A stretch of DNA of 33,352 nucleotides from an uncultured Clostridia bacterium (GTDB lineage: Bacteria > Bacillota > Clostridia > Lachnospirales > Lachnospiraceae): NCBI GenBank assembly GCA_947385945.1, contig CANDMY010000006.1:64001-97352 (forward strand), read 5' to 3'. The position numbers and the translations under genes were made by a program. Below, in pieces: positions 314-28,347 of the stretch (its first letter is position 1; every line of letters begins with the position of its first letter). A model generated the notes under the pieces. It was not told the origin of the DNA. It worked only from the letters and a program-made list of their open reading frames with translations, and searched no databases.

Positions 314-479
314 TCCATTCCTCTCCTTATACAATACTCCCTTTTTTTGCAAGTCCAAATCTAAAAACTTTCATTTTCTTAAAAAACTTCTTTATATTCT
401 AGATGATTATGGAAGAATTGTCAAGATTAAACTGCAAACCATTCCGCAAATCCAACCTACCGACAGAAAAAAACAGCCG

Positions 480-718
480 GAGCGGGGGAGTGATTCCGTT
501 CTGCTGTGACTTCGGAGGAAAGTTAGAAGCCCTTAGACTTCTGTCGATCCACTAGGATTTTTTGCCATTCCCGAATGGCAAAAAAAGGGGTGTGTTTAGC
601 CCGCTGTACAGGCGAATTGCACCCCGATCCGTCCGGCTGGATACACCGAAATTCAGAAGTCTTAGAGCTTCTTACTTTCCAGAGAGCGGAACAGCAGAAT
701 GGAATCACTCCCCCACTC
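480..718 (+). repeat. Copy 1 of a ~235-nt long imperfect-palindrome element: ~185-nt conserved core (about 507-693) inside a private outer stem; candidate structured ncRNA or hairpin-resident non-autonomous mobile element
   Basis: 5' arm gagcgggggagtgattccgttctgctg pairs with 3' arm cagcagaatggaatcactcccccactc. The core is ~90% identical to 21590-21770 and, in inverted orientation, to 18650-18850. An internal hairpin gccattcccgaatggc lies at 564-579. Confidence 0.7.
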
Positions 719-751
719 CAGCGTCCCCTTCTATTTTTTACTCCAAGCAAA

Positions 752-4004: not shown

Positions 4005-4069
4005 CACACATTCCCTCTCCATTTTGTTTCTATCTTATCAATCCTTTTATCCTCGGATTTCGCCCTTTT

Positions 4070-6372: not shown

Positions 6373-6394
6373 AAGATCGAATTCAACCAAAATA

Positions 6395-6432: not shown

Positions 6433-6464
6433 TTATCTCTTTTTATTTTTCCTCTTTCCCTCTT

Positions 6465-8222: not shown

Positions 8223-8380
8223 TTTTTCCTCCATAGAAGCCATTGCGAGAATAATCTTTATTTTTCTCTGGTAATGGTTCACCTTTTGCCAATCTTTAAA
8301 TAATATCTTCTATCCATTTTGTATCATACTACCTCTTTTTTTAGTATATCAAAAAAGAAGACATTCACAATTTATCAAAA

Positions 8381-8426
8381 TCAAATCGGATATTCGCAAT
8401 CCGCTTTGCTACTTGCTCATAACCTA
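8381..8426 (+). repeat. Copy B (5' module only) of the modular intergenic repeat
   Basis: tcaaatcggatattcgcaatccgctttgctacttgctcataacct matches the 5' module of the other copies. The 3' module is absent. Confidence 0.65.
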
Positions 8427-8448
8427 TACTTGTTTTTCCATTTCTATT

Positions 8449-8907: not shown

Positions 8908-9438
8908 GATAACATCTCTATCATTCCTAATGAAAATGCATGATCGGATACGCAGCAGGTATGCTATCTTATATTTGGATAGTATGGGTATGTTTCTATG
9001 CAATATGGTAAGGCTATATACCTATGCTAGTAAACTGAAATATCTTTTTCAGGCTATATCGGTCTGCGAGTTTAACCATAACTACTTATACCATAAAATT
9101 CTTTGAATTTCTATTTCGGAGTAAATTTCCTACTTTCTATACTTCTGTTTTCATTCACTTGTAACATTACAAAAACATCATAAAATAATTCTCACTATAT
9201 CCTCAATATCATACTGTAACTCGAACTCAACGTGTCCTTTGTTTCTATTAACTATATTTGTTTAAATTTTATACAAATACACACCATTTTTTACTTCCAT
9301 TACATCATTTATTCTAGCTTGCTAATTCTGTTCTTGTAAAATATTTTTTTATCGATTCACAAATTTTATTTTTGTCTTAATCACCCCTCTTCCTCTTTTC
9401 ACACTCTCTAAAAAAGAAATGAAATCTTCATATTTCCT

Positions 9439-9912
9439 TTATTCTACCACAGTAAACTCTGAACTACACAAAACTTGCAATTGCCCACTTTTATTTCTAA
9501 TTTGTAAATTTCTAATATTACTTTCCTCATCTGGAATATCAACATTAAATTTCCAGTTCTTAGCATCTACTTCATATATTAAATGAGTAAACATAGTAGC
9601 ACTCAATATCATTTGGAAAGGTGAATTTTTTAAATCATTACAAGCAATGATATCTAACCTTGAAAAAATTAACCCTCCAATCATGATATTTTTTAACTCA
9701 TATAAATTTCCACTTGTTTTACCACCAAACCCTCCAAACGAAACACCCTTCTCTTTCAATGTTGCACCAAATCGAATCAGAATCCTTTCATCTGCTGTCC
9801 AAATAGGATAGATTGCCCCTGTATCCAACAATGCATAAATATTATTCCAATTTTTTAGCTCTACAATAGGTCTTGACTTTTCTTTAACTAAATGTAATGT
9901 AAACTGTTTCAT
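9439..9912 (-). CDS. Retropepsin-like (clan AA) aspartic protease domain protein, paralog 2
   Basis: ALLDTGAIYPIW (DTGA) plus the flap-like VSFGGFGGKTSG. A monomer of ~155 aa is consistent with a dimeric single-DTGA retropepsin. The ATG overlaps the stop of the upstream 87-aa ORF (TAATG). Confidence 0.65.
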   Translation of the reverse strand: MKQFTLHLVKEKSRPIVELKNWNNIYALLDTGAIYPIWTADERILIRFGATLKEKGVSFGGFGGKTSGNLYELKNIMIGGLIFSRLDIIACNDLKNSPFQMILSATMFTHLIYEVDAKNWKFNVDIPDEESNIRNLQIRNKSGQLQVLCSSEFTVVE

Positions 9913-10175
9913 TAAAAACCCCCCAGTACTCCTAACTGAAATACATTATCAGGTGTTGTATAAATGCCTATCAATGCACCAGAAGTTTCAAACTGCATCC
10001 AAGTTAATTCATCTTTCGATTTATTTGTATATTTCACAATAGCAGTTTTAATTGTTGCATCATTATCTTCTTCATACTCAACTTCTGTTAAACCAACCCA
10101 CTGGTTCGGGTACTTTTCTACTATTTGTTTCCAATCCAATCGCTCTTCCATTATATAAGTCCCCTTTCTTATCAA
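9912..10175 (-). CDS. Small hypothetical protein (87 aa) ending ...LGVLGGF, translationally coupled to the aspartic protease gene
   Basis: AAGGGG SD 9 nt before the ATG. The TAA stop overlaps the protease ATG. No recognisable family. A C-terminal Gly-Gly followed by one extra residue is noted. Confidence 0.5.
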   Translation of the reverse strand: MIRKGTYIMEERLDWKQIVEKYPNQWVGLTEVEYEEDNDATIKTAIVKYTNKSKDELTWMQFETSGALIGIYTTPDNVFQLGVLGGF

Positions 10176-10588
10176 ATTTTTTTCAATGATTCTTAAATTT
10201 ATCTTCTCAAAACTTATTTCTCTTTAGATTAAAATATTTGCAATATGTTCCTCCGCATTTCCATATACCGAAATTGTAATAAATATCTCCCAGTATAAGA
10301 CAAGTAACGTTTCACTTTCCTATATCCATTTATCTCATGAAACATAAACCTTCATATTTTATATACACATTACTATCTTTATAATCGTAGCGTCTACAAC
10401 AAAAAACAACAAAATCTTATATGAAAACAAATACTTTTTATATATCCTTTTAGAAACTAAATAACTCTACGATTTTGATATAATTATAGCAAAAAATAAC
10501 CCAAAATGCAATTTATTCTGATCGTCTAAACTAAAAAAGGCTTGATCATTTCTTCAAGCCTCTTTTTCTCTCTTACTTTACAGCAATC

Positions 10589-11770
10589 TTAACAGTAATA
10601 GCCCTCCAATATTGCAGTATGAACATACTGAGGGCTTAACGAATATCCACATTGACAGAAACTTTTATTCGCTATGATGTCAACAGACTCTCTTAAACCA
10701 TTCACCATACAACCTTTTACTGAATAAATATAATCTACTGCTTTTTCATTTCGGATCTGATAAGCAAGCCACCACTGTTCCTCTGATACAATTGACTCCC
10801 AATTTCCTTTCACTAAGTTACACTGTTCTACCAAATTTCCTTCTTTGTCATAAACATCCTCCCTGATTGGTTTAATTTTGGTTGCAATCTTCTTTTTTGT
10901 CATGGTATCTTCTATTTTAAACTTTCCATATAACAGATACCCCATATATTTTTCATTTCTAAGAACTCGGTTTACCTTAGATGCACTCCAACCCAAATCT
11001 CCTTTTGCTGTCAGCATCTTATGTTCAATCAAATAATTTGCAATTTTTTGAGTTCCCATACGCTTTGTTAAATCAGGATCGGTATATAAATCAAAAATTG
11101 TCTTAACAGTCAATCCATCAACTGGATCAATCCGAAAAGTATTATTCTTCCTATCCACAGCTTTTACATAAATATAACCAAATAACCCTGATACCACTAA
11201 TTGCCCTTTCTTTCTATAAGAAAGAACACCATTATTAACCCTTTTCGCCGTCCTCATTGACTCGCTCTGAGCCAATCCTCCATCAACTGACAAACGAATA
11301 ATATCTGTTTCGTCCATATTAAATGTCCAATACTTTCCATCCAGTATTAAAACTCCAATATCATATTCTTTTAACTCTTCAATTGTATTTAATAATTCAC
11401 GTAAATTCCTAGCAAATCTGCAAATATCTTGAACAATAATTAAATCGAACTCCCTTCGTCTGGCTGCTTCCAACATAAGCTGAAATGCTGTTCGATCTTC
11501 TATACTTCTTCCTGAGATACCCCTTTCTGTATATCGATGCCTTTCTTCAATTGTAAAATAAATATGCTCTTTGATCAAAGAATCTAAACGTTCCGCTTGA
11601 TTATGTAACGCCTGCAACTGATCTGGATGATTTGTAGATTCTCCGGCATATCTGGCAACTCTTAAAAGCCTATTTGTATTCAAGATATCATCAAATCTAC
11701 ACTCAAAAAAGAACTTTCTCATACTTAAAGACTCTTGTCTTTCCTTTGTATTTCTACTAAATATACTCAT
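10589..11770 (-). CDS. Serine recombinase (resolvase/invertase catalytic domain plus recombinase domain), atypical and probably degenerate
   Basis: Resolvase-like blocks LLRVARYAGESTNHPDQLQAL, YTERGISGRSIEDRTAFQLML and DLIIVQDICRFARN. The active-site box reads YAGEST instead of YARVST, so the conserved Arg is replaced. The protein is 393 aa with only a single CxC at the C-terminus and no full zinc ribbon. The ATG overlaps the stop of the upstream small ORF (TAATG). Confidence 0.6.
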   Translation of the reverse strand: MSIFSRNTKERQESLSMRKFFFECRFDDILNTNRLLRVARYAGESTNHPDQLQALHNQAERLDSLIKEHIYFTIEERHRYTERGISGRSIEDRTAFQLMLEAARRREFDLIIVQDICRFARNLRELLNTIEELKEYDIGVLILDGKYWTFNMDETDIIRLSVDGGLAQSESMRTAKRVNNGVLSYRKKGQLVVSGLFGYIYVKAVDRKNNTFRIDPVDGLTVKTIFDLYTDPDLTKRMGTQKIANYLIEHKMLTAKGDLGWSASKVNRVLRNEKYMGYLLYGKFKIEDTMTKKKIATKIKPIREDVYDKEGNLVEQCNLVKGNWESIVSEEQWWLAYQIRNEKAVDYIYSVKGCMVNGLRESVDIIANKSFCQCGYSLSPQYVHTAILEGYYC

Positions 11771-11904
11771 TATTCTTTACACTCCTTTACTAAATTTAAA
11801 GCCTGAATATAAGTATCATTATCTAAATATTTTTCCTCATACAACTTCTTCAAGAAAGCCAATATCTTAACCTTTTTTGTAACGATAGATTTTTTCTGTT
11901 CCAT
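11770..11904 (-). CDS. Small basic helical protein (44 aa), translationally coupled to the serine recombinase
   Basis: Internal ATG (MEQKKSIVTKK...) with a strong AGGAGG SD 8 nt upstream. The stop overlaps the recombinase ATG. The longer track ORF has no SD. Confidence 0.4.
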   Translation of the reverse strand: MEQKKSIVTKKVKILAFLKKLYEEKYLDNDTYIQALNLVKECKE

Positions 11905-12163
11905 ATAGTTTCCTCCTGAAAATAAGAAATGATAAGATACATTTATAAACTCAGGAAGTAACTCTATCCAAAATATCATCTAAGTTAATCTTTATATCTG
12001 ATAAAACTTACTGAACTTTAATAAACATCACTTCTATCAAATGATTTCACTTTATATATTTCATAATAATTTCATATATAAAAAGATCTCTTAAGCAGAA
12101 TGTTTCATATCATCACTCTCACTTTAGAGATCTTACATATAACTTTATATAATGTAGATACCC

Positions 12164-12490
12164 CTAACTATCTTTTGACGGATCAAAAAATGCACACTTT
12201 CCATTGACCACATCTGGAGAAAATAATCCTTCTCCACTATATTCTTTCTTTTTTATACAGGTCACTTCTCCTGCCTTACATAAAATCATTCGCTCACTCC
12301 CATAAAATGTAATTTCAGAAGTACCAACATTCTTAATTTTCAGACCTTGCAGTCCATCACTCCAATGATAAGGTTTGATCCCAAACAGCTTATCAAAATA
12401 GCGAAAATCAACTTCTCTCTTTTTCCAGTCTGTCACAAGATAAGAATCTTGAAATGTTCCCACATGAATATCAATAGGAATCTGATGCAC
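12164..12490 (-). CDS. Hypothetical protein (108 aa, GTG start)
   Basis: Open frame with GAGG 5 nt upstream of the GTG. No family recognised. Lies in AT-rich accessory DNA. Confidence 0.35.
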   Translation of the reverse strand: MHQIPIDIHVGTFQDSYLVTDWKKREVDFRYFDKLFGIKPYHWSDGLQGLKIKNVGTSEITFYGSERMILCKAGEVTCIKKKEYSGEGLFSPDVVNGKCAFFDPSKDS

Positions 12491-12966
12491 CTGACCTCGA
12501 CTATTTTTTAATCTTCCGTATTCCAGTCATTATGTGTTGATTGACTCATAATAAAATCTCCTTTGTTTTATAACTTTATCATATCATGTATACAAAGTAA
12601 TATCTATCCCATTTTATAAAAAATCTACTTAGAATCTATCTCTAAGTAGACTTTTCCAAACGGAATTTATTTCTGCTCCCTACCACTGCATACCCCTGAT
12701 AAACATGTTACAACGATATCAAACTTCTGATTGATCTATTGACTTTCTCTGTCTATGCAACATCTATATAAAAATCTTCAAAATATTCACGATATTTTTC
12801 CACTACTTTTCTTATTTCTTCATCTTTTGGCATCTCAATCTATCTCTCTTCCTTCCGATTGGGGATATATTACCTTTTATTTTACTATTTGAAAAAATAA
12901 GGCACGACAACTAGCGATAGACATATTTTAAGGCGATCAAACTAAGTATAAACCCCAAAAAAGCAA

Positions 12967-13003
12967 AAAACGACTTATTTTTTATCTAAAATAAGCCGTT
13001 TTT
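12967..13003 (-). terminator. Rho-independent terminator after prfA (bidirectional hairpin aaaacgacttatttt / aaaataagccgtttt)
   Basis: 15-bp inverted repeat with a single mismatch, flanked by A/T runs on both strands, ~70 nt past the prfA stop. Confidence 0.55.
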
Positions 13004-13074
13004 CCTGTACACCTATACATTTATACATCTATACTTTTTGCCAAACTAACAAGAATTCAGCAACAATCCGCCTT

Positions 13075-14151
13075 TTAAGCCTCTTCATTTAACTTGCTTA
13101 AGCGGATTGCCTGATCCGCTGCAATACAAGCATCTATAATCTCCTGAATCTCCCCATCTAAAATTTTATCCAATTTATAAAGCGTCAAATTAATCCGATG
13201 ATCCGTCACTCGTCCCTGAGGAAAATTATAAGTCCGAATCTTCTCCGAGCGATCCCCTGTCCCAATCTGACTGCGCCGCAGTTCTGCCTCAGCATCATGC
13301 ATCTTCTGCTGTTCTATATCATACAATTTTGCCCGCAGCAGAGCAAATGCCTTCGCCTTATTCTGAAGCTGCGATTTCTCTGTCTGACTATATACCACAA
13401 TTCCAGTCGGATAATGCGTCAGCCGCACTGCAGAATCGGTCGTATTGACACACTGTCCTCCATTCCCGGAAGCCCTCATTACATCAATCCGAATATCCTT
13501 TTCTTCAATCACTACATCTACATCCTCTACCTCCGGCATCACTGCGACCGTTACAGTAGAAGTATGAATCCGTCCCCCAGACTCTGTTTCCGGCACCCGC
13601 TGCACCCGATGTACACCGCTTTCATACTTTAACTTAGAATACGCCCCCTGTCCGGTAATCATAAAATTGACTTCTTTCATTCCGCCAATCCCGGTCTCGT
13701 CCACTCCAACCAATTCCACCTTCCAGCGATGACTCTCCGCATAATGCACATACATCCTATAAATCTCGGCTGCAAACAACGCTGCTTCCTCTCCTCCGGC
13801 ACCCGCACGAATCTCCACAATTACATTTTTATCATCATTTGGATCCTTTGGAAGCAGCAGCACCTTTAATTTCTGTTCCAACTCTTCCATCGTTTTTTTC
13901 GCTTCGGAGAATTCTTCCTTTAACAACGCCCGCATTTCCTCGTCTTTCTCCTCCTCCAGCATAGCCACACTGTCTTCCATCGTCTCCTGTGCCTTTTTAT
14001 ACTTTGTATACGTCTCAACTAAAGGAGTCAAATCACTCTGTTCCTTCATCAACTTCCGAAAGTGATTCTGATCATTGGCAACATCAGGGCGATTCAGTTC
14101 CTCCATTATCTCGTGATAACGCAAAACCAACATTTCCAGCTTATCAAACAT
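13075..14151 (-). CDS. prfA: Peptide chain release factor 1
   Basis: Start moved to MFDKLEM (canonical RF1 N-terminus; GGGAG SD 9 nt upstream), giving 358 aa. GGQ motif in [28 protein letters not shown]. Overlaps the prmC stop (ATGTTTGA). Confidence 0.9.
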
Positions 14152-15082
14152 GTTCTGCACTCCCTTTCTTCTCTTCTCTTTCCTTCCATATTCCAAAGCA
14201 GACCCGATCCAGTCCTGCCAAATCCTTTTTTACCTGCACTTCAAAAAACCCAGCATTCTCTAAAAGAGCCGCTACTGCTTCTCCCTGATCATATCCAATC
14301 TCTAAAAATAACATTCCGCCCGGATTCAAATAATTTCCTGCTTCTTCTGCCAATATCCGATAAAAAAAAAGTCCGTCCTCCCGTCCGTCTAAAGCCAGAA
14401 CCGGCTCATACTCTTTTACTTCTTCTGTCAATGTCTCAATCACCGCAGAAGCAATATAAGGCGGATTTGATACAATGCAGTCAAAATTTCCCCGAATCTG
14501 CTCAAACATATCTGTACCGATCCACTCGATTGTTTCTGTCTGTTCCGTTAAATCGGACTGTACAACATCCTGTCTTCCTCCCCTCTTTAAAAATCCTTTC
14601 TGATATAATCTATTTTCATTCTCTCTTGCCACCTCTAAAGCCTCTTTTGACAAATCTGCTCCAACCGCATACCTAGGTGCACAAAAATACACTAAACTCA
14701 ATAAAATACATCCCGACCCGGTACACATATCCAATACCCTCTTCCCCGGCTTTAGATACTTTCTTACTTCCTCCACCAAAACTTCCGTATCCTGCCTAGG
14801 AATCAATACAGAAGCATTTACCCAAAAAGGAAGCCCCATAAACACCTGCTCCCCTGTCAGATACTGCAGCGGAACATGAGCCGCCCGTCTTCCAATCAAT
14901 TCCTGATACCGCTTTACCTGCATCCCCCCACAAAGCCGCTCTCTGTCACAGAAATACTCGGTACGGCTTATTCCCGTCACATACTCAAAAAGACACCATG
15001 CATCCCAGTCTGCATCTTCTATTCCTGCTTCTTTTAACTCTATCACTCCCTGTTTCAGCAAACTACTGAGCGTCATCCTCAT
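14144..15082 (-). CDS. prmC: Release-factor glutamine N5-methyltransferase PrmC/HemK
   Basis: NPPY motif (IVSNPPYI) and the SAM-binding [11 protein letters not shown]. Start set at MRMTLSSLL, with a GAGGAAGGA SD. Overlaps the 3' end of the DUF1385 gene. Confidence 0.85.
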
Positions 15083-16061
15083 AAAATTCAAATCCTTCCT
15101 CAGCACGCATCCTATCCGCCTCTTCCTGTGAAAGATGTCCCTGTTCTACCTGCCAGCTCTTCCAATCAAACACGGCATCTACCGCCCGAATTGCCACTTC
15201 AATCATCTGATCATCTGGTTCTTTTGTGGTCAGTCTCTGCATCCACATCCCCGGTTTACTTAACAGTTCCACCAAAAGAGAATCATGATTTCCCGCAAAC
15301 CGAATAAATTCATAGGACACTCCAGCAATCACCGGTATGAGAAGCAAACGAATTACCACCCGCAAAACCGGGTTGCTGGTATGAATAAAAAAGAAAAATA
15401 CCATACTGATTACCATAACAATCAGCAAAAAACTGGTTCCGCACCGCTTATGCTGTTTCGAACTGATCCGAACATTCTCCACCGTAAGCGGAAGCCCCGA
15501 TTCAATACAATTAATACATTTATGCTCCGCCCCATGATACATAAAAGTTCTTCGAATATCCTTCATACAAGAAATCAATAAAATATATCCAATAAAAATA
15601 GCAATTCGAATCAATCCCTCTATCACTGCCATCAATTTTGTAGAAATAATATAAGGCTCCAATAAATTTGAAATAAAATACGGCAAAATCATAAATAAAG
15701 CTACTGCCGCCACCACAGAAAAACATACCGTAGCCCCCATCACCACATCTTCCGCCTTATCCTTAAATAACTGATTTAATGCTTTGTCCGCCTTTGATGG
15801 CTTGCTGTTCTCTTCCTCCTCATAAAAAGAAGCTGAAAACGTCAATGTCTTCATCCCAAGCATTAAAGAATCAATAAAACTTAACACCCCTCTTACAATC
15901 GGCAGATTTTTTACCGCTTTATTCTTTACAATCCCCTGATAGTTCTGTACCTCTACCACAATCTCCTGATCCGGCTTGCGAACCGCTACAGCATACTGCT
16001 CCTGATTTTTCATCATAATCCCTTCTATCACAGCCTGCCCGCCAATCCCCGATGATTTCAT
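15063..16061 (-). CDS. DUF1385-family protein (commonly found next to prmC/prfA in Firmicutes)
   Basis: IGGQAVIEGIMMK and YHGAEHKCINC motifs. The track ORF begins at a TTG. The real start is the internal ATG (MKSSGIGGQ), preceded by a GGAAAGGA SD. Confidence 0.7.
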   Translation of the reverse strand: MKSSGIGGQAVIEGIMMKNQEQYAVAVRKPDQEIVVEVQNYQGIVKNKAVKNLPIVRGVLSFIDSLMLGMKTLTFSASFYEEEENSKPSKADKALNQLFKDKAEDVVMGATVCFSVVAAVALFMILPYFISNLLEPYIISTKLMAVIEGLIRIAIFIGYILLISCMKDIRRTFMYHGAEHKCINCIESGLPLTVENVRISSKQHKRCGTSFLLIVMVISMVFFFFIHTSNPVLRVVIRLLLIPVIAGVSYEFIRFAGNHDSLLVELLSKPGMWMQRLTTKEPDDQMIEVAIRAVDAVFDWKSWQVEQGHLSQEEADRMRAEEGFEFYEDDAQ

Positions 16062-16132
16062 TCTATCTGTCCTTTCCAAATAAAAAATTAGGTTGAGATT
16101 CGAAAACCTCAACCCATGTCCTCATTCATTAC

Positions 16133-16342
16133 TTAGTTATTGCTTGAAAAGCCATACTTTCTGTTGAACTTATCCACACGTCCACGAGCGATATTTGCCT
16201 TCTGCTGACCTGTATAGAAAGAATGACATTTGGAACAGATTTCTACATGAATATCCTTCTTAGTCGATCCTGTTACAAACTCATTACCACAGTTGCAAAC
16301 CACTTTTGCCTGATAATATGCTGGATGGATTCCTTCTCTCAT
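16133..16342 (-). CDS. rpmE: 50S ribosomal protein L31 (zinc-ribbon, C+ type)
   Basis: [48 protein letters not shown]...[11 protein letters not shown] is the canonical L31 sequence, with CxC...CxxC. Confidence 0.9.
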
Positions 16343-16417
16343 GTTTCTTCACCTCACAAAAATATTTTGCAGCTCTCACTGCATTTTAAATTGGTATCCC
16401 AATCTTTTTCTTCATAA

Positions 16418-16446
16418 ACAGCTTTTTTACTATACCATAAATATAC
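16418..16446 (-). promoter_or_regulatory. Putative sigma-A promoter for rpmE (-35 TTGCAT, 17-nt spacer, -10 TATAGT)
   Basis: Read on the minus strand: cTTGCATttttgtatatttatggTATAGTaaaa, ~75 nt upstream of the rpmE ATG. A small hairpin (tgcagtgagagctgca) sits in the leader. Confidence 0.45.
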
Positions 16447-16512
16447 AAAAAATGCAAGTACGAATTTTGCTTTTTTAAGGGTTTTCCTTAAAAAACAAAA
16501 AAATTGCAAGAG

Positions 16513-16629
16513 TCAAATCGGATATTTGCAATCCGCTTTGCTACTTGCTCATAACCTCATAGCTGCTATCGCAGCTTCACTTTCGCCTTGGCAGCTTAGA
16601 AGCGGGGGACTTCCTTGATGAGGTTAAAC
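16513..16629 (+). repeat. Copy C of the modular intergenic repeat (5' module + gctgctatcgcagc mini-hairpin + 3' module)
   Basis: tcaaatcggatatttgcaatccgctttgctacttgctcataacctcat agctgctatcgcagct ... cgccttggcagcttagaagcgggggacttccttgatgaggttaaac. Confidence 0.75.
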
Positions 16630-16833
16630 AAAAATAAAAGAAAAATTATAAAAAAGTATTTTCTATTTATAAAAAAGTACTTTCTATTTTTGAAAATATG
16701 TTGTATAATCAATTTTATTAGAGAAGCCAGATATTGACAATGATAATTCTAAATATATCTATCAATATAAAATATGAAGTCCAAATAATCCCGTTGTACA
16801 ATTTTATAATACATGACATGGAAAGGTGAGATT

Positions 16834-18597
16834 ATGAATTACGAAGAGATGTCTTTAGTTGAATTGAGAGCAGCAGCAAAAAAAATGGGGCTGAAAGGAA
16901 CAACTGCCATGAGAAAATCAGAACTGCTCGCATTACTAATACGTGAAAAAGAAAAAATACAAGAAGAAACTATCCTATCAGAACAAAAAGCAATTTCTAA
17001 ACCAACCATCGTACCAGAACAAAATAATTCAATAGAAAATAAAACAATAATGGAACAAAAACCTATAACCGAACAAACGATAGGAATCAAACAAAAAGAA
17101 ATTTCAGAAGAAAAATCCCCTATAAAAAAAGTTTTCGTTTTGCCTAGAGAAAATGAAGGACGTACTTATTCCAACAATTACAACAGAGAAAGCAACAATT
17201 ACAATAGAGAAAACAATAACTACAAGGAAAACAGCTACAATAAAGAAAATATCACAAACAGAGAAAACGGAAACCGAGAAATAAAAGAAAATCGAGAAAA
17301 CGGCGACAGACAGCCTCGGCAATTTCAAAACGGGAATACTCAGCGGAGGATGCAAGATACCAGTAAACGCCCGAATTTTTCAGTGGAAAATCGGGACGGA
17401 TTAGTAAATGCAGGAAGAACCGAAGACGGCACTGTTATCCAGGTAAAATCACAAGAAGAATTGGCACAGTTAGACAGCGGAATTGTAGCTAGCGGAGTTC
17501 TTGAAGTTATGACAGACGGATTTGGATTTATCCGCAGTAATAACTATATGCCAGGAGATAATGATGTCTATGTATCACCGGCACAAATTCGAAAATTAAA
17601 TTTAAAAACCGGAGATATTGTGGTAGGAAATCTTCGGGTAAGAAATCAAAATGAAAAATTCGCCGCACTGCTTTATGTAAAAAGCATCAACGGCATGAAT
17701 CCAGAAGATGCAACAAAAAGACCAAATTTTGAAGAATTAACCCCTATTTTCCCAGATGAGCGGCTGCATATGGCAACGGACACCAAAAATGTTTCTATGC
17801 GGATTGTAGATATGATGTCTCCGGTCGGAAAGGGACAGCGCGGAATGATTGTAGCTCCTCCAAAAGCAGGTAAAACTACTCTCTTAAAAGAAATTGCCAA
17901 ATCAATTACTAAAAATCATCGAGATGTCTATTTAATTATTCTCTTAATTGATGAACGTCCAGAAGAAGTAACCGATATTAAAGAATCTATTGAAGGTCCA
18001 AATGTTGAAGTCGTATATTCCACATTTGACGAACTGCCGGAACATCATAAACGAGTTTCAGAGATGGTTTTAGAACGGGCAAAGCGATTAGTGGAATATA
18101 AACAAGATGTTGTAATTTTATTAGACAGCATCACTCGTCTGGCAAGGGCTTATAATTTAGTTGTTCCGCCAAGCGGAAGAACTCTTTCCGGCGGTTTAGA
18201 TCCGGCAGCACTCCATATGCCAAAGCGGTTTTTCGGTGCAGCACGAAATATGAGAGAAGGCGGCAGTCTTACGGTGTTGGCTACGGCTTTGATCGAAACG
18301 GGAAGTAAAATGGATGATGTTATTTATGAAGAATTTAAAGGAACCGGAAATATGGAATTGACACTAAATCGAAAACTGCAAGAAAAGCGGATCTTTCCGG
18401 CTATTGATATTTTAAAGTCCAGTACTAGAAGAGATGATCTGTTATTAACAGCAAAGGAGCAGGAAGCAATGGAAGTGATTCGAAAAGCGACCAGCGGGAT
18501 GCGTGCAGATGAAGCGGTAGAACAGATTATTGATATGTTCGCTAGAACTAAGGACAATGTGGAGTTTGTACAGCAGGTAAAGCGGATGCGGCTGTAA
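16834..18597 (+). CDS. rho: Transcription termination factor Rho with a long N/Y/E-rich low-complexity (prion-like) N-terminal insertion
   Basis: N-terminal [35 protein letters not shown] (Rho N-terminal helix bundle). Walker [21 protein letters not shown] loops and the C-terminal RecA-like domain are present. The insertion at residues ~100-190 contains [26 protein letters not shown]. Start moved to the ATG with a GGAAAGGTGAG SD. Confidence 0.9.
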
Positions 18598-18620
18598 ATA
18601 CGGATTTGATGGGGGAGGAC

Positions 18621-18876
18621 GCCGGGGCGGGGAAGCCATCCCTTGCCGCTGTTCCGCTCTACGGAAAGTAAGAAAGTCTAATGCCTCTGAATTTCAGTTC
18701 ATCCAACCGGACGGACCGGCACGCAATTCGCCTCTGCAGGAGGCTAAACACGTGCCTTTTTTTGTCATCAGTGATGACAAAAAATCCTGGGGAATCGACA
18801 GAGGCATAAGACTTTCTAACTTCCCTCCGAAGTCACAGCGGCAAGGGATGGCTTCCCCGCCCTGGCTGTCTCATCC
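18621..18876 (-). repeat. Copy 3 (inverted orientation) of the long imperfect-palindrome element, in its own perfect outer stem ggggaagccatcccttgccgctgt / acagcggcaagggatggcttcccc
   Basis: The core aligns to the reverse complement of copies 1 and 2, with compensatory changes. gtcatcagtgatgac at 18764-18778 replaces gccattcccgaatggc. ggcacg...cgtgcc replaces ggggtg...cacccc. The conserved single-stranded blocks caattcgcc, gctaaacac, tgaatttc and ccggacgga are retained. Confidence 0.7.
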
Positions 18877-18949
18877 TGCCTGTAGATTTATTTATTTCCT
18901 ATTTTTTTATAAAATTCAATATAAATATTTTCTTAAAGAATATGTTCTA

Positions 18950-19110
18950 TTCATTTTCTTTCATTTATGTTATTTATTTCCTTTCATTTATGTTATTTAT
19001 TTTCTTTCATTTACGTTATTTATTTTCTTTTATTTATGTTATTTATTTTCTTTCATTCATATTATCTATTTCCTCTTATTTATGTTATCTATTCTCTTTT
19101 ATTTATTTCG
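18950..19110 (+). repeat. Tandem array of ~7 direct repeats of a 23-bp T-rich unit (tttcatttatgttatttattttc), each with an ~11.5-bp sub-period
   Basis: Units read directly: tttcatttatgttatttatttcc / tttcatttatgttatttattttc / tttcatttacgttatttattttc / ttttatttatgttatttattttc / tttcattcatattatctatttcc / tcttatttatgttatctattctc / ttttatttatttcg. There are no unique spacers, so this is not a CRISPR array. Confidence 0.8.
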
Positions 19111-19240
19111 TTTATTTTTTATAAGATTCAAAAAAATTTTTTTTAAAGTTTTTCTTATTTCTTATTATAGGGTTTCTTATTATAGGGGCAAAAATACCAG
19201 CATATTTATACAATCTTTGTATAAAATTCCCACCTTGACA

Positions 19241-19292
19241 ATTAGTACAGTTATGGACTATACGATAGATAGTACAGAACTGTACTAATATA
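19241..19292 (+). promoter_or_regulatory. Candidate MarR operator: palindrome AGTACAGaaCTGTACT plus a third AGTACAG half-site, overlapping a TTGACA -35-like hexamer just upstream of marR
   Basis: ttgacaattAGTACAGttatggactatacgatagatAGTACAGaaCTGTACTaat lies ~20-70 nt upstream of the marR ATG. MarR-family dimers bind such pseudo-palindromes and commonly autoregulate. Confidence 0.4.
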
Positions 19293-19308
19293 TTTAAAGA
19301 GGTAAATT

Positions 19309-19776
19309 ATGAGAAACAACACCATTTTTATGGAACAACTAAATAAATATTACGCTATATGGCAGGAGTATAACTATGTATATGAAGAATGGGCAAAAGC
19401 ACATGGACTGTCAGTCAACAGCCTTTTCGTACTGTGTGCCATTCACGATGGTGGAGATGATTGTACACAGAAAAAAATCAGTCAAAGATGGCTAATACCA
19501 AAGCAGACAATCAATATGGTTTTAAAAGATTTTGAACGCCGAGGATTTACAGAACTGTTTCCTATGCCGGAAGATAAAAGAAATAAAATAATACGATTTA
19601 CAAAAACAGGAAAAGAATATGCCGATACTATTATTTCCGAATTGCGAAAAGTAGAACTATTTGCAGTAGAGAAAATAGGCATAGAACGGATGCAGCAGTT
19701 AAACGAAAATATGGCTTTATTTGTAGACCTTTTCAGCAAAGCAGGAGGTAAAAAAGACCATGAAACAAACTTATGA
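19309..19776 (+). CDS. MarR-family winged-helix transcriptional regulator
   Basis: 155 aa. Central wHTH segment ...TQKKISQRWLIPKQTINMVLKDFERRGFTELFPMPEDKRNKIIRFTKTGKEYAD. AGAGGTAAATT SD. The 3' end overlaps the MATE gene start. Confidence 0.75.
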   Translation: MRNNTIFMEQLNKYYAIWQEYNYVYEEWAKAHGLSVNSLFVLCAIHDGGDDCTQKKISQRWLIPKQTINMVLKDFERRGFTELFPMPEDKRNKIIRFTKTGKEYADTIISELRKVELFAVEKIGIERMQQLNENMALFVDLFSKAGGKKDHETNL

Positions 19777-21099
19777 TATAAAAACTTTCCTTCAATTCGT
19801 TATCCCATCTGTGCTGTCTTTTGCTTTATCAGGGGTTTATACGATTGTAGACGGTTTTTTTATAGGAAACAGCATAGGCGATTTAGGACTCTCAGCCGTC
19901 AATATCGCTTATCCCATTGTAGCAGTAATTCAAGCACTTGGGACAGGAATCGGAATGGGTGGTGCAATTTATTATTCCATTTGCAAAGCCGAAAAAAAAG
20001 AGGAACAGGCAAGAGAATTTACAGCCGGTGCTTTATGGATACTGATTATTTCAAGCATCCTTTTAACCATTTCTGTTTTTCTTTTAAACAGCACTCTTTT
20101 AAAATTATTAGGGGCAAGCAGCGAACTGCTTTTATTGGGAGAAGAATATATTGCCGTTATCGCCTTAGGAGCTGCCCTGCAAGTAATTGGTACAGGATTC
20201 ATTCCTTTTATCCGTAATTATGGCGGTTCCTTTTCTGCAATGGTTTCTATGATTGCAGGTTTTGTTACCAATATCATTTTTGACTACCTATTTGTATGGA
20301 TATTAGGGCGAGGCGTTGCAGGTGCAGCATGGGCTACAGTAATCGGGCAAGGTATTACCCTGCTGACTGCACTTATCTATTTATTACACAAAAAACAACT
20401 TACATTAAACATTCCTCTTTCAAAGTTTGGAAAGGTATCTGCATCCATACTTAAAATCGGAATTGCTCCATTTGGACTTACCATGTCCCCTAATCTCTCT
20501 CTTATAATTATAAACCGTTTCTCCATGTCCTATGGAGGAGAATCGGCAATTGCTGTCTATGCTTGTATTTCCTATGTCATTTGCATTGTCTATTTAATAC
20601 TGCAGGGAGTAGGTGATGGAAGTCAACCGTTACTCAGTCAGCACTACGGTGAAAAAAATTTTGATAAACTAAAAAACACAAGAAATTTCGCTTATCGATT
20701 TGCCATGTTCCTCTCCTTTATTGGCTGCATCATTATGTATTTAACAAGAAAAGAGCTCGGCGTATTATTCGGAGCATCAAATGAAGTAAATAAAGAAATT
20801 GCAAAAATAATGCCCATCTTTTTGTTTTCCGTACCCTTTGTTGCAATTCTCCGTATCACAACAGCGAGTTTTTATGCCACAGAAAAAATACCTTTTCCTA
20901 TATTTTGACTTTTATTGAACCATTGCTTATGTTAATACTTATGCTTATACTACCGCCTCTATTTGGCGGGCAGATAATGATCTGGTGGAGTACCGTTTTA
21001 GCAAGGATTTTCTCGGCATTATTAGCTATTATCCTAAAAACCCATACAGACAAAAAGCCCTTATCAAATAATACAATATTAGAATACAAAAATGAATAA
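19760..21099 (+). pseudogene. MATE-family multidrug efflux transporter with an apparent frameshift near 20880-20910 (or an uncorrected sequencing error)
   Basis: The 382-aa ORF (19760-20908) has polytopic MATE-like helices but stops after ~10 TMs. A 64-aa ORF in another frame (20905-21099, MTFIEPLLMLILMLILPPLFGGQIMIWWSTVLARIF...) looks like the missing hydrophobic C-terminus. An A7 homopolymer sits at ~20882-20890, just before the frame change. Confidence 0.55.
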
Positions 21100-21107
21100 A
21101 AATATCA

Positions 21108-21425
21108 AAGAAAATTCGGCATCCGCTCCACTACTTCCTTATAATCCTATGCTGCTATCGCAACTTGTCAGATAGGGCTTGCACCCCACCTGACACAAGG
21201 AACTCCCCCAACCCACCACCTTCGCCTTCACGGCTTAGAAGCAGCAAACTTCCTTGATAGGGTCAAATCGGATATTCGCAATCCGCTTCGCTACTTGCTC
21301 ATAACCTCATAACTGCTATCGCAGCCTTTCAGTGGGAGTCTGCACTCCCACTGAAACAAGGAAGTCCCAGCCCGCCGCTTTCGCCTTGGCGGCTTAGAAG
21401 CGGGGACTTCCTTGATGAGGTTAAA
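21108..21425 (+). repeat. Copies D and E of the modular intergenic repeat, in tandem; D is a divergent variant, E is full-length with an extra inserted hairpin (cagtgggagtctgcactcccactg)
   Basis: D: ...atccgctccactacttccttataatcctatgctgctatcgcaac...cgccttcacggcttagaagcagcaaacttccttgatagggtc. E: tcaaatcggatattcgcaatccgcttcgctacttgctcataacctcataactgctatcgcagc...cgccttggcggcttagaagcggggacttccttgatgaggttaaaa. Confidence 0.75.
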
Positions 21426-21561
21426 AAACCAGTAAAAATTTCCACAAACCAAAAATAAATCAAAACCTAACAAAAACTCCAAAAACCTAAAGAAAAACAA
21501 AAAAACAACTCTCAAAATCCCAAAAGGAAAGCCATCATTAAGTAAATTAAGCGAAAAAGCA

Positions 21562-21795
21562 GCCAGAGTGCGGTATGGCGGCGATGTGACTTCGGAAGAA
21601 AGTTAGAAGCTCTTAAACTTCTGTCGATCCACTAGGATTTTTTGCCATTCTCGAATGGCAAAAAAAGGGGTGTGTTTAGCCCGCTGTACGGGCGAATTGC
21701 ACCCCGTTCCGTCCGGTTGGATGCATCTATATTCAGAAGTTTTAGAGCTTCTTACTTTCTGTAGAGCGGAACATCGCTGCCATACCACACTCTGG
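21562..21795 (+). repeat. Copy 2 of the long imperfect-palindrome element, with private outer stem gccagagtgcggtatggcggcgatg / catcgctgccataccacactctggc
   Basis: The core (about 21587-21770) is ~90% identical to copy 1. The outer 25-bp arms are unrelated in sequence to those of copies 1 and 3, yet mutually complementary (one mismatch, one G:U). Confidence 0.7.
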
Positions 21796-21852
21796 CGTCC
21801 TCCCCCAAAAATTATCTATCCCCCTTAAAATAAAGAATATTCGCAAAACCTA

Positions 21853-21882
21853 TTGATCTCCATTCTTCCTCTATGCTAAAAT
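21853..21882 (+). promoter_or_regulatory. Putative sigma-A promoter for the malic enzyme gene (-35 TTGATC, 18-nt spacer, -10 TAAAAT)
   Basis: tatTGATCtccattcttcctctatgcTAAAATaaaa, ~60 nt upstream of the ATG at 21940. Confidence 0.35.
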
Positions 21883-21939
21883 AAAAACCAATGCGATCAA
21901 CCCGCATCAATATTTTAGAACAAAGATAGGAGACATAGA

Positions 21940-23091
21940 ATGACAACAAGTGAAAAAGCTCTAACACTGCACAAAAAATGGAACGGCAAAATCGAAACCA
22001 TCTCGAAATGCCCTATCCAATCCAGAGAAGATCTCGCCCTGGCATACACTCCAGGCGTGGCAGAACCCTGCAAAGTAATAGCCAAAGACAAAAAAGCAGC
22101 CTATCAATACACCTTAAAAGCCAACACCGTAGCGGTTATTACAGACGGAAGTGCCGTCCTAGGTTTAGGAAATATCGGACCTTACGCCGCAATGCCGGTA
22201 ATGGAAGGAAAAGCCGCACTATTTAAAGAATTCGGCGGCATCAATGCCTTTCCAATCTGCTTAGACACCCAGGACACCGAAGAAATCATTAAAACCATTG
22301 TCCATATCGCCCCTGCATTTGGAGGCATTAACCTAGAAGATATTTCTGCCCCACGTTGCTTCGAAATCGAAGAACGTTTAAAATCCCTTCTAGATATCCC
22401 GGTCTTTCATGACGATCAGCACGGAACCGCTATTGTCGTCCTAGCTGGTATTATCAATGCACTAAAAGTAGTAAAAAAGCAAAAAGAAGACTGCAAAGTA
22501 GTTGTAAACGGTGCCGGCTCCGCAGGAATTGCTATTACCAAACTCCTGCTGACCTATGGTTTTCTATCCGTTACTCTATGTGACAAATCTGGTATCCTTT
22601 CTAAAACCACCAAAGATCTCAACTGGATGCAGAAGCAAATGGTTGACCGCACTAACTTAGAAGGAAAAACAGGGTCTCTATCGGATGCCCTAAAAGGTGC
22701 CGATATTTTTATTGGCGTATCCGCACCGAATATTGTAACACCGGAAATGGTAGCATCTATGAACTCAGATGCCATCTTATTTGCTATGGCAAATCCTGTA
22801 CCTGAAATTATGCCGGATTTAGCAAAGGCAGCCGGTGCAAGAGTGATTGGTACCGGGCGATCTGACTTTCCTAATCAAGTCAACAATGTAGTAGCATTTC
22901 CGGGTATTTTTAAAGGTGCATTGGAAGGACACGCCACACAGATTACAGAGGAAATGAAATTGGCTGCTGCAAAAGCCATCGCCAGTTTAGTACCAGATTC
23001 GGAATTAAGCGATAACAATATTATGCCGCAGGCTTTTGATCCTCGTGTTGCAGAAATTGTAAGCAATGCAGTAAAAAGCCATATCCATTAA
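21940..23091 (+). CDS. NAD(P)-dependent malic enzyme (malate dehydrogenase, oxaloacetate-decarboxylating), short ~380-aa form
   Basis: MTTSEKALTLHKKWNGKIETISKCPIQSREDLALAYTPGVAEPC... is the typical bacterial malic-enzyme N-terminus. Rossmann GAGSAGIAI. GGAGAC SD. Confidence 0.85.
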   Translation: MTTSEKALTLHKKWNGKIETISKCPIQSREDLALAYTPGVAEPCKVIAKDKKAAYQYTLKANTVAVITDGSAVLGLGNIGPYAAMPVMEGKAALFKEFGGINAFPICLDTQDTEEIIKTIVHIAPAFGGINLEDISAPRCFEIEERLKSLLDIPVFHDDQHGTAIVVLAGIINALKVVKKQKEDCKVVVNGAGSAGIAITKLLLTYGFLSVTLCDKSGILSKTTKDLNWMQKQMVDRTNLEGKTGSLSDALKGADIFIGVSAPNIVTPEMVASMNSDAILFAMANPVPEIMPDLAKAAGARVIGTGRSDFPNQVNNVVAFPGIFKGALEGHATQITEEMKLAAAKAIASLVPDSELSDNNIMPQAFDPRVAEIVSNAVKSHIH

Positions 23092-23092
23092 A

Positions 23093-24019
23093 ATGGACTG
23101 GAACGGAAAGCCTTACTATTCACTGGATTTTTATCTAAAGCAGACCTTTGGCGAAAAAATCTATCGTGTTGCTTTAGACGGAGGCATGAGCTGCCCCAAT
23201 CGGGACGGAACGATTGGAACAGGAGGATGTATCTTCTGCAGTGCCGGAGGTTCCGGCGATTTTGCCGCTTCCCGTCTGCTCTCTATTACAGAACAGATTG
23301 AACAGGAAAAACAGAAAATCCAGCAGAAACGACATTGTAACCGTTTTATCGCTTATTTTCAAGCCTATACCAATACCTATGCACCAATAGAAACCCTGCA
23401 CCGTCTCTTTACAGAAGCGATCTCTCATCCAGATATTGCGGTTCTTTCTATTGCTACACGTCCAGACTGTTTAGACGAATCTGTTCTGGCACTATTAGAA
23501 GAACTCAATCAAAAAAAGCCTGTCTGGATTGAGTTAGGACTCCAGACCATGCACGATAACACGGCTGATTTCATTCATCGGGGCTATCCGCTGTCTGTCT
23601 ATCAAGATACGGTAATCCGCTTAAAAAGAAGAAATCTGCCTATTATTACACATATTATTTTGGGACTTCCATACGAATCCGAAGCCGATATACTTGCAAC
23701 GATTGCCTATCTAAATCAAATTGGCTGTGACGGCATTAAACTGCAGCTGCTGCATATTCTGCGTGGCACACAACTTGCTAAGCTATATCAAAAAGAACCA
23801 TTTCCCATTTTTACACAGGAGGAATATCTCTCGGTTCTAATTCATTGTCTAGAACACCTCTCTCCTCATACGGTTATTCACCGTGTTACAGGAGACGGTC
23901 CAAAGGATTTATTACTGGCTCCTCTATGGAGTCAAAATAAACGAGGAGTCTTAAATTCTCTCCACCGAGAGATGAAACTGCGTGGCACCTATCAGGGAAG
24001 GAGGTTTTCATGCCAGTAG
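23093..24019 (+). CDS. Radical SAM protein, TIGR01212 (YhcC-like) family
   Basis: DGGMSCPNRDGTIGTGGCIFCS is the characteristic extended Cys box of this family. ~308 aa. The ATG follows 1 nt after the malic-enzyme stop. Confidence 0.75.
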   Translation: MDWNGKPYYSLDFYLKQTFGEKIYRVALDGGMSCPNRDGTIGTGGCIFCSAGGSGDFAASRLLSITEQIEQEKQKIQQKRHCNRFIAYFQAYTNTYAPIETLHRLFTEAISHPDIAVLSIATRPDCLDESVLALLEELNQKKPVWIELGLQTMHDNTADFIHRGYPLSVYQDTVIRLKRRNLPIITHIILGLPYESEADILATIAYLNQIGCDGIKLQLLHILRGTQLAKLYQKEPFPIFTQEEYLSVLIHCLEHLSPHTVIHRVTGDGPKDLLLAPLWSQNKRGVLNSLHREMKLRGTYQGRRFSCQ

Positions 24020-24543
24020 AAGTACTTACACTCTATAAACTCATGATTTTATATATGCTGAACAAAGTAAATTTTCCCCTTACCAATGCTCAGATTTCCA
24101 ATTTTATCTTAGGAAAAGAATATACCAACTATTTTACCCTGCAGAAAGTATTGTCTGAACTTTTGGATATTGCTTTAATCAGCACAAAAACGATTCGTCA
24201 TACTACCTATTACCAGATTACTTCCCAAGGAGAAGAAACCCTGCATTTTTTTGAAAATAAAATCTCCGATCTGATTAAAGACGAAATTGTTGCCTATCTA
24301 ATGGAAAATAAATATGAACTCCGCAACGAAGTGGGAACCATTGCCGATTACTATAAATCTTTGAATAAAGATTATATTGTTCACTGTCAGGTAAAAGAAG
24401 GCTCTTCCACTTTAATTGAACTTAATATCTCTGTACCAACAGAAGAATATGCCGAGCGAATGTGCAGCAACTGGCGAAAAGGCAGCCAGGATATCTACGC
24501 CTATATTATGAATGTATTAAATAACAGACCCAAAATCGAGTAG
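24010..24543 (+). CDS. Hypothetical protein (177 aa), possibly the DUF4364-type partner often found after TIGR01212 radical SAM genes
   Basis: Overlaps the radical SAM stop by 10 nt (coupled). No motif verified from sequence. The DUF assignment is from memory of gene neighbourhoods only. Confidence 0.4.
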   Translation: MPVEVLTLYKLMILYMLNKVNFPLTNAQISNFILGKEYTNYFTLQKVLSELLDIALISTKTIRHTTYYQITSQGEETLHFFENKISDLIKDEIVAYLMENKYELRNEVGTIADYYKSLNKDYIVHCQVKEGSSTLIELNISVPTEEYAERMCSNWRKGSQDIYAYIMNVLNNRPKIE

Positions 24544-27570: not shown

Positions 27571-28347
27571 TTACAAGAGCTGTACCGTCTTTTCGAGTTC
27601 CTCTGCACCCTGTCGCTTCGGTTGACTGGCAGAAAGGAAATTGATTTCACCTACAAAGTTGAAAACAATATCTACTTTCTGTACCCGTTTCCCGTCCACC
27701 TTTTCCGGCGCATGGACTATGATTTTCTTGATAAATTCATTGACGATTGCGGGGGTGAGTTCCTTTATCCCCACATACTTGCGGATAATCGCGGCGAAGC
27801 TGTCAAAATCGCTCTTATTCTGTTCGTAGGTATCGACTTCCTGCTGGTCTGCCTTGACCTTTTCTTCCAGTTCCCGCTGTTCCGCTTCATACTCTGCGGA
27901 CAGCTTCAAAAACCTGTCGTGACTGATTGCCCCGCTTATGTCGTCCTCATAAATCCGCTTGAAGATACGGTCAAGTTCCGCTATCCGCTTCCTCGCCTGT
28001 CCGACCTCACGCTTCCTGCGTTTCATTTCCTTTTCCGTTTCAGCGGAGCGTTGCTGATACATCATTTCATGGAAAGCCATGATGTCATCAAAGAAAAGGG
28101 CGGTCACATCAAATATCCTGCTCCATACGATTTGCTTCAACACTTCTTCGCGGATAAAGTGAGCCGTACAGCTTCCTGTATTGCTCTTGTACTTTGCACA
28201 GCGGTAATGGTCTTGTGAGCCGTTAAAACTTTTACAGGTAACAAAGTGTAATTTACTCCCACAGTCTGCACAGTATACCAAGCCGGAGAACAGGGCTTGC
28301 CGTTCTGCTTTTGTGGGGCGGCGTTTGTTCGCCCTAAGTTCCTGCAC
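27571..28347 (-). pseudogene. 3' fragment of a large serine recombinase gene (zinc-ribbon/coiled-coil/C-terminal DUF4368-like region only; catalytic N-terminus missing)
   Basis: ...LFSGLVYCADCGSKLHFVTCKSFNGSQDHYRCAKYKSNTGSCTAHFIREEVL... (CxxC ... C...C zinc ribbon), then a coiled coil and the ...IVHAPEKVDGKRVQKVDIVFNFVG tail typical of Tn-borne large serine recombinases (TndX/TnpX-like). No resolvase domain lies upstream; that space holds an unrelated gene fragment in another frame. Confidence 0.6.

Follow-up and report, generated by a model that had tools for sequence, protein, structure and literature searches.

Structured, non-coding repeats of the TwoAYGGAY family dispersed on a Lachnospiraceae chromosome

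Three related repeats recur in the 33,352-nt stretch of DNA that was analysed here (the window, at its full length), and the locus raises the question of what they are: genes for short peptides, palindromes that are read as DNA, or elements that specify a folded single strand. The initial annotation, made from the letters of the window and its open reading frames, had marked the third repeat at 18621-18876 and had argued from substitutions on both arms of its hairpins that selection acts on base pairing rather than on a peptide. The window is chromosomal and Lachnospiraceae-like, and contains genes for gyrase or topo IV subunits, RF1, PrmC, Rho, MarR, MatE, malic enzyme and dipicolinate synthase. 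Our overall reading, held with moderate confidence, is that the three repeats represent a member of the TwoAYGGAY RNA family (Rfam RF01731) that is dispersed on a Lachnospiraceae chromosome: a structured, non-coding element of which the folded strand is a putative RNA and which in part resembles a mobile element.

Family assignment and departures from the described motif

Repeat finding showed that copies 1 and 2 are direct repeats (92% identical over 189 nt) and that copy 3 is their inverted counterpart (73-82% identity), the mutual orientation that the initial annotation had given; every copy is a long imperfect palindrome of about 250 nt. The three repeats belong to TwoAYGGAY, a family that is catalogued in Rfam, and their recovery is therefore the rediscovery of a known family in a variant form. 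Membership was defined as a score at or above the RF01731 gathering score of 43 bits over the full length of the model. The matches exceed that score by 18-29 bits and all span model positions 1-168 of 168: 61.4 bits for copy 1 (510-687, plus strand), 69.6 bits for copy 2 (21591-21766, plus strand) and 71.6 bits (E 2.6e-12) for copy 3 (18831..18656, minus strand), the last obtained with a sensitive Rfam scan of 18560-18930. The default whole-window scan at gathering thresholds returned a partial tRNA only and missed all three copies, because the speed filters lose TwoAYGGAY in long inputs; a whole-window scan by E-value recovered copy 2 only, and short-range scans were needed for the others. 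The lesson for annotation is that a default Rfam scan can overlook copies that score well above the threshold.

The Rfam model covers the inner 176 nt only; the outer closing duplex, P0, and the termini ACAGCC (5') and GGCGUCC (3') fall outside it. With these included, the full elements are copy 1 at 473..726 (plus strand, subtype A), copy 2 at 21559..21800 (plus strand, subtype B, with a shorter P0) and copy 3 at 18617..18869 (minus strand, subtype A), which runs from ACAGCC at 18869 to GGCGTCC at 18617 and folds at -168 kcal/mol (z -16). An element does lie where 18621-18876 had been marked, and it was the limits that needed correction, the true ones, given as slightly wider, being 18617-18869. 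Within copy 3, all on the minus strand, the 5' arm of P0 (18835..18866) pairs with the 3' arm (18621..18652) as a 32-nt inverted repeat that is 97% complementary, and the core (18656..18831) contains the invariant internal loops GUGACUUCGGAGG, UCCGUCCGG and GCGGAAC. The two hairpins of the junction are located at 18758..18784 (hairpin 1, UUUUUUGUCAU-CACUGA-UGACAAAAAA, without GGA, at the site of the first AYGGAY loop in canonical members) and at 18718..18756 (hairpin 2, GGCACGUGUUUAGCCUCCUGCAGAGGCGAAUUGCGUGCC, with two conserved G-U pairs and no AYGGAY loop). The element is preceded by a conserved A-type 5' leader (18870..18900, AAAUAAAUCUACAGGCAGGAUGAG), which on the plus strand is the U-rich stretch that follows the hairpin downstream of rho. 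The corresponding leader of copy 1 lies at 415..472 on the plus strand.

The TwoAYGGAY motif RF01731 was described by Weinberg et al. in 2010 (PMC2864571). The window copies share with it full-length model matches above the gathering score on the same strand, the two-hairpin junction, the occurrence in gut Clostridia, the large closing stem (termed 'often very large' in the 2010 supplement) and the presence of multiple copies in one genome, which the 2010 alignment shows for Psychromonas. They differ from it in that both AYGGAY terminal loops are gone, with CAUUCUCGAAUG and GCCCGCUGUACGGGC in their place, and in that P0 with its ACAGCC/GGCGUCC ends is added beyond the Rfam model. In the window type, CAUUCUCGAAUG or CAUCACUGAUG forms the end of hairpin 1 and GCCCGCUGUACGGGC that of hairpin 2; in the window copies one loop reads UCCCGA, UCUCGA or CACUGA and the other CUGUACA or CCUGCAG. 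AUGGAU occurs twice in the Psychromonas copies of the 2010 alignment, and a canonical relative, L103 (RF01731 score 107 bits), has the loops ACGGAU, at the hairpin 1 position, and AUGGAG, and also the ACAGCC and GGCGUCC termini. Because both AYGGAY loops are missing, the window copies constitute a divergent TwoAYGGAY subfamily. In the copies of another relative, L130, the tip of hairpin 1 (e.g. 5421-5463) reads CUGCUUCCAUGCAG, with a GGA-type motif, CAUGGAAG, on the opposite strand, so that the tip looks as if inverted, and hairpin 2 has an insertion of ~70 nt.

The lost loops are those from which a function has been proposed: a small RNA that titrates CsrA by way of its AYGGAY loops. That proposal was made from the GGA loops for TwoAYGGAY itself (Gardner and Eldai 2015; PMC4333381), which is the point of likeness to the CsrB/RsmZ-type protein-sponge RNAs, and the ACGGAU and AUGGAG loops of L103 speak in its favour. 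In the window subfamily, however, the motivating loop motifs are missing: all window-type copies have other sequences in place of both loops, one of the three invariant GGA motifs is unpaired, and the copies contain 4-10 GGA against 4-9 UCC. With few invariant GGA, only one of these unpaired, and no enrichment over UCC, the sponge idea therefore gains little support for this subfamily, and we consider it highly improbable. No csrA gene was found within the window. The Csr/Rsm clan is presumably Rfam clan CL00106.

Pairing, coding potential and the strand that folds

The initial annotation had suggested that each copy be folded. Folds of 271 nt around each copy gave one long rod on either strand, at -131 to -168 kcal/mol, where dinucleotide shuffles reached about -70 to -92 kcal/mol (z -14 to -16 for the copies). 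The architecture consists of P0 (25-32 bp), two further helices that are broken by the invariant internal loops, and a junction with two hairpins; the large closing stem round this junction was present in the MFE and in the consensus folds. The hairpin strings on which the idea of compensation had been founded were recovered at their places, gccattcccgaatggc at 564-579 in copy 1, gccattctcgaatggc at 21644-21659 in copy 2 and gtcatcagtgatgac at 18764-18778 in copy 3, and the same holds for the changes on both arms, ggggtg/cacccc versus ggcacg/cgtgcc and ctaagacttctg/cagaagtcttag versus ctaatgcctctg/cagaggcataag. On their common structures, 19 pairs are changed on both sides and still paired between copies 1 and 3 (5 with pairing lost in one copy), 22 between copies 2 and 3 (2 lost) and 11 between copies 1 and 2 (5 lost).

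The comparison was then widened to an alignment (A2) of 17 full-length copies and 272 columns, with the 3 window copies and 14 others that came mostly from one mouse-gut Lachnospiraceae MAG. RNAalifold returned 94 pairs, of which 43 have at least one sequence that is changed on both sides with pairing kept. Standard pairs make up 97.5% of the 1541 cells (17 copies, 94 pairs), as against 85.7% in shuffles, and 189 cells are doubly changed, as against 51; not one of 500 shuffles reached any of the five measures. In a control in which the partner was slid by 1-3 columns, pairing came to 41-50% and doubly changed pairs to 13-21. The paired positions thus do not vary independently when more copies are taken into account, in keeping with what had been proposed from three. 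Double changes occur in 25 of the 35 pairs of P0 (helices 1-2) and in 7 of the 15 pairs of junction hairpin 2 (helix 8). The sequence in the middle of P0 is almost free, and complementary in every copy; P0 sequences form graded series (e.g. copy 3, L053 and L016a), which fits ordinary mutation plus compensation. The unpaired stretches GUGACUUCGGAGG, UAGAA, UCCGUCCGG and GCGGAAC are invariant and stay so in an alignment of 23 sequences that includes the more distant L130 copies. At the level of these alignments, the stems are shown to be held for their pairing and the loops for their sequence.

Short protein-coding genes that run through the repeats would be the simplest competitor, since every window copy has ORFs of 60-180 codons running across it, with similar peptides as their translations. 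The ORFs at 523-816 (minus strand, through copy 1 in antisense) and at 18752-19288 (plus strand, starting inside copy 3 and running into an AT-rich 23-nt tandem repeat) exist as had been listed. Their frames, however, are not kept: the one giving KVRSSKTSEF..QPDG..AKHTPFF has internal stops in most of the 17 copies and is shifted by one-base indels in A-runs (FFAIREWQK becoming FLPSEDGKNP), and the frame homologous to 523-816, a spurious ORF, is likewise broken in most copies. Neither a conserved start codon, whose lack had been pointed out from the window copies, nor a conserved open frame was found across the 17 copies; the peptide frame runs on the strand opposite to the RNA sense, and the substitutions track pairing partners. 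The ORF at 18752-19288 has no Pfam match and is probably no gene, its counterpart being called as a domain-less gene in L001 and L002. A coding function is hardly credible on these grounds, and the claim of selection on structure rather than on a peptide holds. The tandem repeat mentioned occupies 18925-19141, between copy 3 and the MarR gene (~23-nt units, TTTCATTTATGTTATTTATTTTC, ~9 of them); an A copy in another locus, L135, also adjoins a tandem repeat, of ~24 nt and of different sequence.

The rod can be drawn on either strand, and the question of which one folds was approached through the mismatches. The RNA sense, i.e. that of the Rfam model, is minus for copy 3 and plus for copies 1 and 2. 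On that strand the core has 105 G-U pairs versus 7 A-C mismatches, with six G-U pairs invariant, and P0 has 17 versus 5, an excess that in the A copies rests largely on two copies. Because G-U pairs far outnumber A-C mismatches there, a single-stranded molecule of the Rfam sense is favoured; a blind homogenisation of the arms at the DNA level is disfavoured, because it would erase the G-T positions, the bulges and the asymmetric loops. G-T is tolerated in DNA hairpins too and is the mildest of the DNA mismatches. The best reading, short of proof, is that the folded strand is RNA, with single-stranded DNA of that sense as the less likely alternative.

Placement, paired units and their presence or absence in relatives

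Copies outside the window were found in the mouse-gut Lachnospiraceae MAG MGBC128194 (16 copies in 11 contigs), in L130/L131, a relative with 79% identity in Rho (three copies), and, with a strict-pattern scan, in four metagenome contigs; scans of viral contigs, plasmids and phages gave no copies. The pattern used on the genome collection, GACTTCGGA-N(95-125)-TCCGTCCGG, was too loose, as ~100 of 120 loci were chance matches in unrelated phyla, and L007, L015, L023, L037, L071, L105 and L116 were checked and discarded as coding-like noise. The copies fall into two subtypes. In subtype A (259-268 nt; copies 1 and 3) P0 measures about 32 bp and the conserved 5' leader reads ..CUCUAYGGA..AUGAAUCAACCAUAAAUCUACAGGCAGGAAAAGACAGCC; in subtype B (244-248 nt; copy 2) P0 measures about 25 bp and the leader is AAACGUARAUURUGRRACAAUACAGCC. 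An extended -10 element in the B leader (TGnGACAAT) was considered and dropped, since these bases seem to be engaged in pairing with the 3' tail.

The subtypes commonly occur together. In L016, L122, L108, L089, L028, L130 and L134/L136 an A and a B copy stand head-to-head, their 5' ends facing and 53-480 nt apart; copy 3 (A) and copy 2 (B) of the window have the same mutual orientation at a distance of 2.7 kb, with MarR and MatE between them, and in L135 a gene for a HAD-type hydrolase separates the A and the B copy. A copies end 3-100 nt past the stop codon of a convergent gene (19 nt for copy 3, and 25 nt for copy 1, from the stop of a periplasmic-binding-protein gene at 752-1684, minus strand). 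B copies precede a gene of their own strand by 120-190 nt: from copy 2 to the malic-enzyme gene downstream the distance is 140 nt, and copy 2 is also upstream of that gene's promoter-like site (21853-21882), and the L130 B copy before L31 is likewise upstream of the L31 promoter-like site and outside the leader. The resulting order is polar: stop of gene 1, A in antisense, B in sense, promoter of gene 2. Subtypes, head-to-head units and polar placement are absent from the accessible papers on the family.

A copies are antisense to the genes that they abut, and if they act at all in those mRNAs, they would do so with the other strand. Neither a consistent sigma-70 promoter upstream of the RNA-sense strand nor a terminator after it was found, and the strand opposite the A leader has no consistently placed promoter across the copies. 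Opposite the leader of copy 1 lies a strong promoter-like site, TTGACA-17-TAGAAT (424..396), which overlaps it and faces a divergent gene that starts near 313. A fixed orientation with respect to replication was rejected, as copies 1 and 3 are opposite within a stretch where the GC-skew offset has the same sign. Plus-strand GC skew is very strong (-0.3 to -0.45) across the minus-strand genes and close to zero across the plus-strand ones (1-16000 versus 16000-24000), which indicates a large coding-strand bias together with a replication offset of the same sign throughout.

The comparison of orthologous spacers shows that the units come and go as blocks. Between the Rho stop and the L31 promoter, L130/L131 have a spacer of 791 nt that contains an A/B pair, whereas in L132, whose Rho is 83% identical to that of the window, the spacer is 18 nt and both flanks are conserved. 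The spacer between the malic-enzyme gene and rho is 574 nt in L130, where it holds a B copy and the stump of an internally deleted A copy, versus 59 nt in L132. L127 and L129 had no copies. A/B units without coding capacity are thus present or absent between the same genes in related species, and copies that are numerous, dispersed and variably present at orthologous sites are of the kind by which MITEs are recognised; with few species compared, insertion and deletion cannot be told apart on the sequences. The Rho-L31 unit lies between the copies of a 10-nt direct repeat, AGAAAACGAA, and the other four of the five units tested did no better than shuffles; we claim no target duplication, because the direct repeat is found in one of the five only. 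No recurrent protein gene stands beside the copies (only ABC ATPases kilobases away and spurious ORFs inside the repeat), no mobilising enzyme or transposase was found near them, and Pfam scans of ORFs gave no reverse transcriptase in the window, near L103 or next to any copy.

Two copies have unusual ends. In the L135 copy at 1352-1608, GGCGTCC is missing and the 3' end is the exact complement of its own 5' leader; because its termini are perfectly palindromic in this way, copying between arms at the DNA level does occur. The L133 copy at 840-1087 is a chimera of an A-type 5' half and a B-type 3' half, the stems of which no longer pair, and as coverage of L133 is only 2.4x, it may be an assembly artefact.

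Various other features of the neighbourhood were recorded. A second family of intergenic repeats (6244-6377, 8372-8443, 16504-16635 and 21152-21433; no Rfam match) comprises, at 21152-21433, two tandem ~161-nt units, both of which contain a hairpin (e.g. TGTCAG..CTGACA), and lies directly upstream of TwoAYGGAY copies in the MAG contigs L024, L057 and L028. In L130 and L132 the genes that come after rho, in its own orientation, are L31, DUF1385, PrmC and RF1, and rho is divergent from the malic-enzyme operon; in the window (13075-24543) rho is inverted relative to the arrangement of both neighbours, and MarR-MatE lies between rho and the malic-enzyme gene. Because repeat elements are located at the junctions, recombination between inverted copies could, judging from gene order, explain the change. 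Genes or fragments of serine recombinases are found at 10589-11770 (Resolvase and Recombinase domains), 27571-28347 (Zn_ribbon and DUF4368) and 30630-32009 (Recombinase and Zn_ribbon), a truncated tRNA match at 30319-30373 (29.7 bits, model positions 8-63), and a low-GC block (about 30% GC) at 7-13 kb; as a set they resemble the remains of integrated elements. The paralogous minus-strand ORFs at 8449-9003 and 9439-9912 (184 and 157 aa; DNA repeats D5 and D8, 76-78% identical) have no Pfam match.

Competing explanations and meaning for the family

The position of the A copies, 3-100 nt past a stop codon and followed on the gene strand by a U-rich tract (GGCUGUUUUUUUCU in copy 1, a good one; UGUCUUUUCCU in most A copies, moderate), invites the explanation that the repeats are merely intrinsic terminators or 3'-UTR stabilisers of the upstream genes, active on the strand opposite to the Rfam model; the terminator scan cannot score stems as long as these. 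The U-tract of copy 3 is poor, however, B copies lie upstream of promoters and not behind genes, the G-U pairs turn into A-C mismatches on the gene strand, and a rod of 250 nt whose loops are invariant and whose junction bears two hairpins far exceeds what a terminator needs, which makes the explanation very unlikely as a full account. That the antisense A arm with its U-rich tract also serves as the terminator of the adjoining gene is plausible but secondary. The wider habit of the copies brings to mind the REP/REPIN, Correia, BOX and RUP repeats, which are MITE-like: short, non-coding and palindromic, with many intergenic copies, often after stop codons, gained and lost between relatives and able to terminate transcription. 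A DNA-level palindrome of this sort, with a cruciform or single-stranded DNA read by a transposase or HUH enzyme and arms that are kept complementary by templated correction, would account for a non-coding, intergenic, multi-copy element with inverted A and B arms, for whole units being present or absent, for the conserved ACAGCC/GGCGTCC at the base of the stem and for the symmetrised termini of L135, and the strand bias is compatible with single-stranded DNA in so far as G-T is a mild mismatch. Against it stand the six invariant G-U pairs, the bulges and the asymmetric internal loops, which correction between arms would remove, the lack of a consistent target duplication and of a transposase close by, and the curated covariation support in Rfam for an RNA; the element is also much larger and more ornate than the named repeats, its invariant asymmetric loops and G-U pairs point to a fold at the RNA level, and neither their terminal-repeat/target-duplication signature nor a cognate transposase was found for it. 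We therefore regard a purely DNA-level palindrome as rather unlikely.

The constraint on an RNA sense and the dispersal would be explained together if the copies were templates for a reverse transcriptase encoded elsewhere in the genome, in the manner of retrons or SINEs. The msr-msd RNA of retrons is a structured template whose ends are closed by a long inverted repeat and whose stems vary with compensation; the window element shares the closing repeat and the compensated stems, and P0 recalls the a1/a2 repeats of retron RNAs. It differs in forming one continuous, long rod instead of side-by-side msr and msd hairpins, in its many orphan copies and in that a reverse transcriptase is found neither in the window nor beside any copy. 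A recent preprint ('Coevolutionary mining of prokaryotic non-coding elements with a genome language model', 24 Sep 2026, bioRxiv 10.64898/2026.09.22.753630) bears on this point: by word counts it contains TwoAYGGAY 52 times and 'reverse transcriptase' 14 times (both including the abstract), 'ssDNA' 5 times, 'TwoAYGGAY RNA' 8 times, 'TwoAYGGAY element' 4 times, cryo-EM 4 times and 'transposase' once. In the same counts 'recombinase', 'CsrA' and 'terminator' have no occurrence, and 'TwoAYGGAY RT' and 'TwoAYGGAY-associated' are absent, which leaves the link between the family and a reverse transcriptase unproven. The preprint may already give a function for TwoAYGGAY or cover part of the present findings. 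On the evidence assembled here, we consider the template explanation improbable.

We return to the reading with which we began, a dispersed structured element with a putative RNA as the folded strand. Each copy specifies a single-stranded rod of ~250 nt, probably of RNA, in which the long P0 duplex would keep the rod closed and the invariant loops would be contact sites for a protein or for tertiary structure. The A/B unit appears to behave, and would spread, as a non-autonomous mobile element, the fold conferring its competence to spread, and the antisense A arm with its U-rich tract probably doubles as a terminator for the upstream gene. A bolder version, which we put forward as a doubtful speculation, is that the hairpins are not free-standing sRNA genes but the two arms of a mobile unit, polar and non-autonomous (A arm, short centre, B arm), that inserts between genes, gives the upstream gene a terminator, can flank cargo (MarR-MatE in the window, the HAD hydrolase in L135) and spreads by way of a folded single-stranded, probably RNA, intermediate with help in trans, possibly from a reverse transcriptase, as a bacterial counterpart of SINEs.

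Since 2010, TwoAYGGAY has remained an orphan among the RNA classes of the mammalian gut microbiome. The subfamily described here, its A/B units and their polarity are modestly new and do not overturn current knowledge. It keeps the scaffold of the class and drops the loops that stand behind both its name and the sole functional hypothesis published for it, CsrA titration; with the name-giving loops dropped and the scaffold kept, the conserved function therefore more likely lies in the invariant internal loops. In their behaviour the copies resemble an intergenic insertion that is polar and comes in pairs, which reframes the question of what the sRNA regulates.
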